Part shown: in pieces, positions 2,245 to 2,372 of the stretch
Layout of the letters: every line of letters begins with the position of its first letter
Numbering within the stretch: the stretch's first letter is position 1
Assembly (NCBI GenBank): GCA_965227295.1
Contig: OZ245742.1
Location: 1,216,001-1,280,000, forward strand
DNA: 64,000 nucleotides
Reading direction: 5' to 3'
Source: Leptonemataceae bacterium
GTDB lineage: Bacteria > Spirochaetota > Leptospiria > Leptospirales > Leptonemataceae
Made by a program: the position numbers and the translations under genes
Notes under the pieces: generated by a model
What the model saw: the letters and a program-made list of their open reading frames with translations, nothing else
Told to the model about the DNA's origin: nothing
The model's database searches: none

Positions 2245-2372
2245 ACTCCGAGGACCGAGGGAAAGAGGTAGAAGAAGAGAATGTTTCAAAAAGCAAGTCT
2301 ACGTGCATACGCCGTTTCGCGTGCAACGGGCGTAGACCCTCCCCACAACCTCGGCTCCTCGGTCCTCGGTGT
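2245..2372. repeat. palindromic intergenic element, copy 1 (about 25-bp imperfect terminal inverted repeats)
   Basis: ACTCCGAGGACCGAGGGAAAGAGGT (2245-2269) and ACCTCGGCTCCTCGGTCCTCGGTGT (2348-2372); same arms at 37379-37539. Confidence 0.85.

Follow-up and report, generated by a model that had tools for sequence, protein, structure and literature searches.

A species-private family of CCGAGG-armed hairpins, probably derived from a GxxExxY nuclease cassette, in a Leptonemataceae genome

Here we describe two palindromic loci in a 64,000-nucleotide stretch of the genome of a Leptonemataceae bacterium (contig OZ245742.1, positions 1,216,001 to 1,280,000; hereafter the window) and the repeat family to which they belong. 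Both loci, at window positions 2245-2372 (128 bp, copy 1) and 37379-37539 (161 bp, copy 2), are bounded by inverted arms built from the word CCGAGG. Our data show that they are members of a gene-less hairpin family, private to this species among the data searched, which probably derives from a cassette encoding a GxxExxY nuclease (PD-(D/E)XK, PF13366) and which resembles, in its logic, the repetitive extragenic palindromic (REP) doublets known as REPINs and their REP-associated tyrosine transposase (RAYT).

Results

A large dispersed family found in one species

The genome that contains the window (G000) consists of a single contig of 5.94 Mb with a G+C content of 59.8% and is 93.55% complete by marker genes. 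The 13-mer CCGAGGACCGAGG, whose four exact matches in the window are the four arms of copies 1 and 2, occurs 86+89 times in this genome. With up to two mismatches it has eight matches in the window against a shuffle mean of 3.27, a count that is reached by 2 of 100 shuffles and is not decisive alone. The 16-mer arm word ACTCCGAGGACCGAGG was found 76+82 times (158) in G000, while the reversed-word control gave 0 occurrences, as did a panel of 40 relatives, among them two sister genomes of the same genus (G001 and G002) with a DNA identity of only ~66-83%.

A search of G000 with an arm profile returned 292 arms, which resolve into 118 inverted pairs (arms less than 400 bp apart; observed lengths 43-180 bp), leaving 56 solo arms that include a few weak matches. 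Pair lengths show modes at ~110, 126 and 167-174 bp. The elements are clustered along the chromosome, with 16 neighbour gaps below 3 kb versus 6.8 expected, and only 2 of 2000 simulations reach 16. The initial annotation of the window had proposed a non-autonomous dispersed element resembling REPINs or miniature inverted-repeat transposable elements (MITEs), and a family of this size bears it out. It had also suggested counting the arms across the genome, and far more than two copies were found, all of them absent from the 40 relatives. No match to a described repeat family appeared in the literature searched or in Rfam, which gave 0 matches at the gathering score over the whole window on both strands.

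We also searched well beyond this genus. A 19-base arm pattern run against one genome per species (185,579 GTDB representatives, which may omit the window's own genome) gave 20 single unpaired matches in 20 unrelated records, and a scan of JGI metagenomes gave three single matches; neither scan contained a second population of CCGAGG arms. Since the relatives, species and metagenome scans are all without paired copies, the arm word family is private to one species among the data searched.

Some arm-like arrays were noted on the way. Two solo intergenic arrays, in a Vicinamibacterales metagenome-assembled genome (L050, 690-745) and in a soil metagenome contig (L068, 88-140), consist of ACTCCGAGGACCGAGG followed by (G)GACCGAGG or GGCCGAGG words, and may be distant kin of the CCGAGG family. 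Variant arms, ACACCGAGGCTCCGAGG, lie at positions 4963455 and 4965773 of G000:C1.

A GxxExxY nuclease gene between the same arms

When plus-to-minus arm pairs 400-6000 bp apart were inspected, just one was found to have no further arm in between. This is a 588-bp unit (G000:C1:1864372-1864959) with standard arms and GGAAGATGG spacers, whose open reading frame (ORF) matches PF13366 (PDDEXK_3, 2.8e-42) and TIGR04256 (GxxExxY, 2e-44). The link to GxxExxY genes, raised earlier as a mere resemblance, therefore holds for the sole arm-bounded unit above 400 bp that lacks an internal arm. Across 19 homologues, 12 alignment columns are invariant; the encoded protein conforms to all of them, and they include G..E..Y and D..E.K, the latter with the catalytic residues D89, E99 and K101.

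The AlphaFold model of this protein (predicted local distance difference test, pLDDT, of 87) displays a general restriction-endonuclease-type fold. No solved structure related to it by sequence was found. Foldseek returned weak PD-(D/E)XK matches, the best being Cas4 SSO0001 (E 1e-3), and VIA-align gave a best Z of 7.8 to the nuclease domain of BpuSI, with Cas4, Hjc and other restriction-type folds close; as a Z of 7.8 lies in a range common for this tool, it supports the general fold only. The two genes on either side of the 588-bp cassette are separated by 18 nt in the sister genome G002, and the cassette is therefore itself an insertion, located 10 nt after a stop codon.

The association extends to other arm words. 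G000 has a second PF13366 gene, enclosed by arms of the word CACAGAGG in a 446-bp unit (G000:C1:978887-979332), and this word forms 12 pairs in the genome, one of which is the gene-bearing unit, as well as ~20 solo arms. The sole PF13366 gene of G001 has flanks of the word CATCCGTG, for which the counts were 91+81 in G001, 6+5 in G002 and 0 in G000 (control 0). Thus, for all three genes tested, the word flanking the gene is dispersed in the gene's own genome. A third arm word, CACCGAGG, is also dispersed in G000. PF13366 genes are present in 16 of the 41 genomes of the relatives set. As a separate observation, a third arm word read as CCACCGAGGCACCGAGGACACCGAG, with an 8-nt period, can be seen in G000:C1, for example at 2117317, 3070626, 3953506 and 5043361.

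Might the arms instead be a REPIN population served by a RAYT? Such a population would account for hairpin-forming inverted doublets that are better conserved than singlets, and we did find paired arms to be better kept than solo arms (0.56 versus 1.27 mismatches per 16 nt, one-sided p = 0.019). It would likewise account for the clustering of the copies and for the absence of target duplication, and all three traits match the description of REPINs in PMC3116915. However, the RAYT domain PF01797 (Y1_Tnp) has 0 matches in the 93.55%-complete G000 at E <= 0.01 (two candidates scored), while the same search matches 6 of 14 control genomes. Moreover, the 24-nt arm is a direct iteration of CCGAGG; it is not self-complementary, and neither end carries GTAG or CGTC, whereas a REP is defined in PMC3733652 as an imperfect palindrome of 20-40 bp, tagged at one end by GTAG or CGTC. 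We therefore consider service by a RAYT highly improbable, and the TnpA-REP transposase that the initial annotation had suggested looking for has to be dropped.

The same applies to the four-helix-bundle genes that the initial annotation had mentioned, as PF05635 (S23p / 23S_rRNA_IVP) has 0 matches in G000. An origin as 23S rRNA intervening sequence (IVS) was considered separately and rejected: the single 23S gene (2823700-2826614, 2915 nt against a model of 2925 positions) has no extra length and no arm match inside, and the PF05635 search is negative.

Common descent and decay of the elements

Both sides of an element follow one arm design, ACT-CCGAGG-A-CCGAGG-NN-CCGAGG. Forty-three of the 118 pairs (103-115 nt) can be aligned over their full length. 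Taken as a majority consensus, they give a perfect hairpin of 112 nt (-90.9 kcal/mol), in which the 24-bp arms are followed by an internal loop formed by the two spacers and then by a core stem of 20 bp, capped by a loop of 4 nt. It follows that the interiors are homologous and not cargo. The earlier statement that interiors do not align is correct for the two window copies, which at 128 and 161 nt fall outside the 103-115 nt class, and incorrect for the family as a whole. Likewise, the variable cargo envisaged at that time turns out to be one ancestral palindromic core, decayed to 48% identity and not interchangeable.

The decay is uneven. Mean pairwise identity is 48% in the interior and 54% in the core, as opposed to 87-88% in the arm columns, and arm positions 1-16 are kept in 83-100% of the 236 paired arms. 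BLAST clustering of the interiors yields small groups only (8, 7, 4, 3 and 3 members). The inner spacers are of a GAAGA type and a TTTTTT type and occur in every combination. The ~12 nt that adjoin the arms on the outside read GAAGAnTTTn to the left and the complement of this to the right, a degenerate palindrome about as decayed as the interior. On either strand, T-rich sequence precedes the arms and A-rich sequence follows them. The GATTG on the left and the A-rich stretch on the right, both correctly noted at the two window loci, find their explanation as parts of this decayed outer palindrome.

As far as descent can be established by alignment, all units are shown to derive from one ancestral element, in which everything but the words decays after insertion. 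The ancestral unit was probably a near-perfect palindrome of ~135 nt. Each half would have comprised the degenerate flank GAAGAnTTTn, a 24-nt arm with its three words spaced at 7 and 8 nt, then a short spacer and one side of a ~20-bp core stem, with the second half mirroring the first. Some neighbouring copies share a flank yet carry inverted cores, which suggests that the interior may flip by recombination between the arms. One such pair, at G000:C1:3179686-3179797 and 3180918-3181028, lies 1.2 kb apart and has a common 14-nt outer flank and, by eye, apparently inverted cores.

Within the arms, the dinucleotide between words 2 and 3 (positions 17-18) is identical in both arms of 18 of the 118 elements, versus 18.7 by chance. 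As this dinucleotide varies freely, the constraint is on the words and not on their pairing. In the core, 78% of cells are paired in real copies versus 33-46% for shifted partners, and RNAalifold, run on the 43-copy alignment, predicts the arm pairs alone.

Elements lie close behind stop codons

Placement was assessed with a crude ORF-based gene caller (4690 genes) whose start codons are unreliable. Of 143 stop-side flanks, 135 have the stop codon no more than 28 nt away (median 10 nt), and 106 of the 118 elements have a stop codon at this distance. Nearly all elements are located shortly behind a stop codon or else within the final codons of a gene. Residual spacers measure 38 nt at the median, compared with a length-weighted median gap of 511 nt under random intergenic insertion. 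Convergent gaps are preferred (35 observed versus 21 expected) and divergent gaps avoided (10 versus 21; chi-square p = 5e-4). Elements and called genes appear to overlap in 22 cases, always at a gene end: 21 are called 5' ends (longest-ORF start) that fall inside an element, and one is an ORF that ends inside. In asymmetric copies, the orientation is unrelated to gene direction (A/A type, 8 in ++ and 8 in --; T/T type, 4 and 5). Copies are also found inside operons, at nuoE/nuoF, mutA/mutB and meaB/rpiA, and leave the genes unbroken.

An intrinsic (Rho-independent) terminator was tried as an explanation of these sites and rejected: sequence scans of the two window copies returned neither a terminator-like nor a promoter-like site within them, both strands show the T-rich and A-rich flanks described above, and there is no orientation bias with respect to gene direction.

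This placement also bears on a broader explanation, according to which the elements are domesticated cis-acting hairpins, kept by the host as signals at mRNA 3' ends or in intercistronic spacers (as RNase III sites, stability barriers or translation uncouplers) or as sites for a host protein that reads CCGAGG, the nuclease being irrelevant today. The contrast between words conserved at 83-100% and a remainder at 48% identity points to selection at each locus, and the tight distance to stop codons, the avoidance of divergent (promoter) gaps, the intact genes around operon copies (with an ORF running in from the 3' side in only 1 of 118 elements) and the strong predicted RNA stems all agree with a role of this kind. 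On the other hand, the orientation of the elements is independent of the direction of transcription, and the window copies contain neither a terminator-like nor a promoter-like site. What is conserved is the words rather than the pairing, and no covariation is seen, although a signal acting as an RNA stem would tolerate compensatory change. In addition, sister species manage the same junctions without elements, and the presence of a nuclease gene between the same arms for each word family is left unexplained. Overall, we regard domestication as a rather unlikely account, to which we nevertheless give real weight because the conservation of words in old copies fits a host role at least as well. 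This account and a derivation from the nuclease cassette are not mutually exclusive.

Insertion without target duplication

The absence of an obvious target duplication, initially remarked on at the two window loci, holds throughout the family. There is no excess of direct repeats at offsets 0-20 and lengths 2-4, and the longest words shared by the two flanks are distributed as in shuffled pairings.

Three junctions, within a 15-kb stretch that is syntenic with the sister genomes, could be read; the elements there are gene-less or solo. At mutA/mutB the two genes overlap by ATGA in both relatives, and G000 is ~61 nt longer, the additional sequence starting with ACTCC directly at the TGA. At meaB/rpiA, the tail of meaB is shortened in G000 to a TAG followed directly by ACTCC. 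At rpiA, the stop codon is conserved and the element begins 11 nt after it. As read from these alignments, the three compared junctions show the elements as discrete insertions without target duplication, with boundaries that are approximate because the sister genomes are only ~66-83% identical in DNA.

A clean empty site is absent for the window copies, because both junctions vary within the genus: in G001 and G002 they are occupied by 1.3-2.2 kb of other genes. In G001, a gene for an AraC-type regulator with seven transmembrane segments lies between nuoE and nuoF, at the junction of copy 2 (L009, 1088-2200), and a GH18 protein gene lies between ilvC and the alcohol dehydrogenase (ADH) gene, at the junction of copy 1 (L011, 274-1290). 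The latter is followed by a nested palindrome with a different arm sequence (25-nt within 20-nt arms; L011, 1293-1476), which adjoins the stop codon of the ADH orthologue, and an element made of G001's own word occupies another junction of the same 15-kb stretch. These junctions have therefore been hit repeatedly. Contigs from sequencing run X1 over the 15-kb stretch, which contains five arms, revealed no empty site, their joints being due to cross-mapping of repeats; a second run, X3, does not contain this organism.

The elements could also be imagined as ordinary MITEs. In that case they would stem from an insertion sequence by deletion, and a DDE transposase would mobilise them by recognising their arms as terminal inverted repeats. 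Their size (~100-180 bp), inverted ends, intergenic sites, copy number and restriction to a single species would suit this explanation. Yet the target duplication is missing, and no transposase gene is found between arms, the sole long arm-bounded unit encoding a PD-(D/E)XK protein. The outermost ~12 nt are also less conserved than the inner words, the opposite of what transposase-bound ends display. IS3-like ORF fragments do adjoin a truncated arm (G000:C1:1867827-1868535), and their arrangement looks like an insertion sequence that landed in the element, not like the parent of the family. We thus deem an ordinary MITE improbable.

The two copies in the window

The features of the window loci and of their neighbours are as follows.

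1173-2177, minus strand: ilvC (ketol-acid reductoisomerase), start codon 67 nt from copy 1
2245-2372: copy 1, 128 bp, in the spacer between the Fe-dependent ADH gene and ilvC; purine-rich left inner spacer, right spacer CCCTCCCC-ACAA
2245-2268, plus strand: left arm of copy 1, ACTCCGAGGACCGAGGGAAAGAGG, with ACT, two exact CCGAGG words and a degenerate third (AAGAGG)
2297-2337: inner core hairpin of copy 1, GTCTACG (2297-2303) and CGTAGAC (2331-2337)
2349-2372, minus strand: right arm of copy 1, ending in CCTCGGTCCTCGGTGT; its minus-strand reading starts with ACACCGAGGACCGAGG
2401-3558, minus strand: Fe-dependent alcohol dehydrogenase gene, stop codon 28 nt from copy 1
36105-37364, minus strand: nuoF, downstream of copy 2 in the same operon
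37379-37539: copy 2, 161 bp, long class, inside the nuo operon
37379-37402, plus strand: left arm of copy 2, ACTCCGAGGACCGAGGGTCCGAGG, three CCGAGG words
37430-37483: inner hairpin of copy 2, GCTATGAAA (37430-37438) and TTTCATAGC (37475-37483)
37516-37539, minus strand: right arm of copy 2, CCTCGGTACCTCGGTCCTCGGAGT, three CCGAGG words
37551-38129, minus strand: nuoE, whose stop codon TGA is followed by AGAGGTTTGTT and then by the arm, the usual outer flank of the family

The arms and inner hairpins lie exactly where the initial annotation had placed them, and both copies are indeed located between co-directional genes, which are on the minus strand in each case. The ACA start seen in the right arm of copy 1 is a variant shared by 21 of the 236 paired arms. 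Copy 2 is 11 nt from the stop codon of nuoE and 14 nt from the start codon of nuoF. Each copy is predicted to fold into a single long hairpin, at -58.3 kcal/mol (z -5.4) for copy 1 and -82.3 kcal/mol (z -8.1) for copy 2, and none of 200 shuffles was as good in either case.

Two further observations concern other parts of the window. In the 500-residue ORF at 38152-39654 (minus strand), the Complex1_49kDa (NuoD) domain covers residues 226-500, which suggests a candidate fusion of NuoC and NuoD. An unrelated GC-rich repeat of ~70 nt that contains GGAGGACCGAAGC lies at ~49510-49580 and was met at no fewer than 25 sites genome-wide in a loose arm search (that is, at least 25).

Discussion

Several possibilities may be proposed for how a nuclease cassette could give rise to such a family. 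The nuclease would read its own words, either on duplex DNA or on extruded hairpin DNA, and its cutting would release or copy the unit, while gene-less units would use the nuclease in trans. Uniformity of the words may result from concerted evolution, in which sites cut again and again are repaired from other copies, or from a benefit that each copy brings to the host. When transcribed, a copy would place a 24-bp perfect stem in the mRNA, which might serve as a processing or stability signal between cistrons, as for example between nuoE and nuoF.

A number of points weigh against the derivation of these hairpins from the nuclease cassette. That the nuclease moves, binds or cuts the arms is something we infer from association, and one nuclease gene per 118 pairs is likewise an association and not a mechanism, so that the gene could be a passenger between the arms. 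In the relatives, an ungapped repeat finder detected clear iterated inverted arms at just 5 of 18 PF13366 loci; by eye, tandem short words are found beside the gene at 10 of 11 PF13366 loci inspected, with dispersal counted in G001 alone. Near-identical copies are missing from the 110-nt class, where the best interior identity between copies is 73% (83% in the core), which argues against recent activity of the CCGAGG family here. Words conserved in old, decayed copies are unlike purely selfish dead copies, and a function at the level of the host would fit them at least as well. The core shows no signal of covariation (55 double-change cells versus 26-56 in shifted controls), and we therefore do not claim a selected RNA structure. 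Finally, the unreliable start codons behind the placement statistics and the approximate insertion boundaries count on the same side.

Considering all the above results, a derivation from the GxxExxY cassette nevertheless appears to us the best explanation of the window loci. It is conceivable, although we advance it tentatively, that GxxExxY nucleases and word-built arms constitute a widespread, undescribed class of mobile DNA that inserts without target duplication, a parallel to REPIN/RAYT with a PD-(D/E)XK enzyme. The specificity of this class would reside in a short tandem word, exchangeable from one sister species to the next (CCGAGG and CACAGAGG in G000, CATCCGTG in the congener G001); the enzyme would keep hundreds of word arrays uniform by cut-and-copy long after the rest has decayed, and the elements would home to a few nucleotides behind stop codons.

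Comparison with known systems

Correia (NEMIS) elements of Neisseria and other bacterial MITEs are ~100-160 bp long, have inverted ends of ~25 bp, occur in two size classes at gene ends and are co-transcribed, giving long RNA stems. Correia elements duplicate TA on insertion and have well-conserved interiors. The CCGAGG family, in contrast, is without duplication, has decayed interiors and ends in iterated words.

A second comparison can be made with the IVSs of 23S rRNA, such as the Coxiella IVS with S23p (PMC4990558). These too are small selfish inserts, whose long complementary arms pair into a stem once transcribed, and they sometimes contain a small ORF of unknown function. Unlike them, the copies described here lie between protein genes, in a genome whose 23S gene has no insert and which lacks PF05635, and the ORF is of another family.

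PF13366/GxxExxY, a widespread protein family, is listed as 'function unknown' in a survey of PD-(D/E)XK proteins (PMC3424549), and in the literature searched GxxExxY occurs as an incidental gene label in one paper. We found no described match for the design of a GxxExxY gene plus arms in the literature searched, with subscription journals and preprint supplements outside reach and without a query pairing the PD-(D/E)XK fold with REPIN/RAYT. This suggests that gene-less hairpins and a GxxExxY nuclease sharing the same arms are a kind of mobile DNA not yet described in print. New here are the very large gene-less population (118 pairs), the kept words as against the decayed core, and the finding of three words within one genus. 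These three arm words, each dispersed in the genome that carries the nuclease gene it flanks, offer a clean natural experiment on the function of PF13366. If our model is correct, such genes may be a source of small, sequence-specific DNA-recognising nucleases. For annotation, more than 170 conserved intergenic hairpins, located ~10 nt from stop codons and in operons such as nuo, would find an explanation, and they may shape mRNA processing.

The closest parallel is the REPIN/RAYT system. As described by Bertels and Rainey (2011; PMC3116915), it also consists of hairpins formed by inverted doublets, with many gene-less copies and few enzyme genes flanked by the same repeats. The doublets are kept better than singlets, lie in local clusters, are extragenic and cause no target duplication, and a genome may contain several groups of repeats, each with its own enzyme gene. 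The family described here differs in its enzyme, a PD-(D/E)XK nuclease of ~120-150 residues (PF13366) instead of a Y1 transposase, and in its arm, which comprises three tandem words of 6-8 nt instead of the tagged small palindrome defined in PMC3733652. It differs further in that its words persist in copies that have otherwise decayed, and in its tight placement against stop codons. Should the nuclease mobilise or maintain these hairpins, the REPIN/RAYT way of life would have been invented twice, independently and with different catalytic folds.

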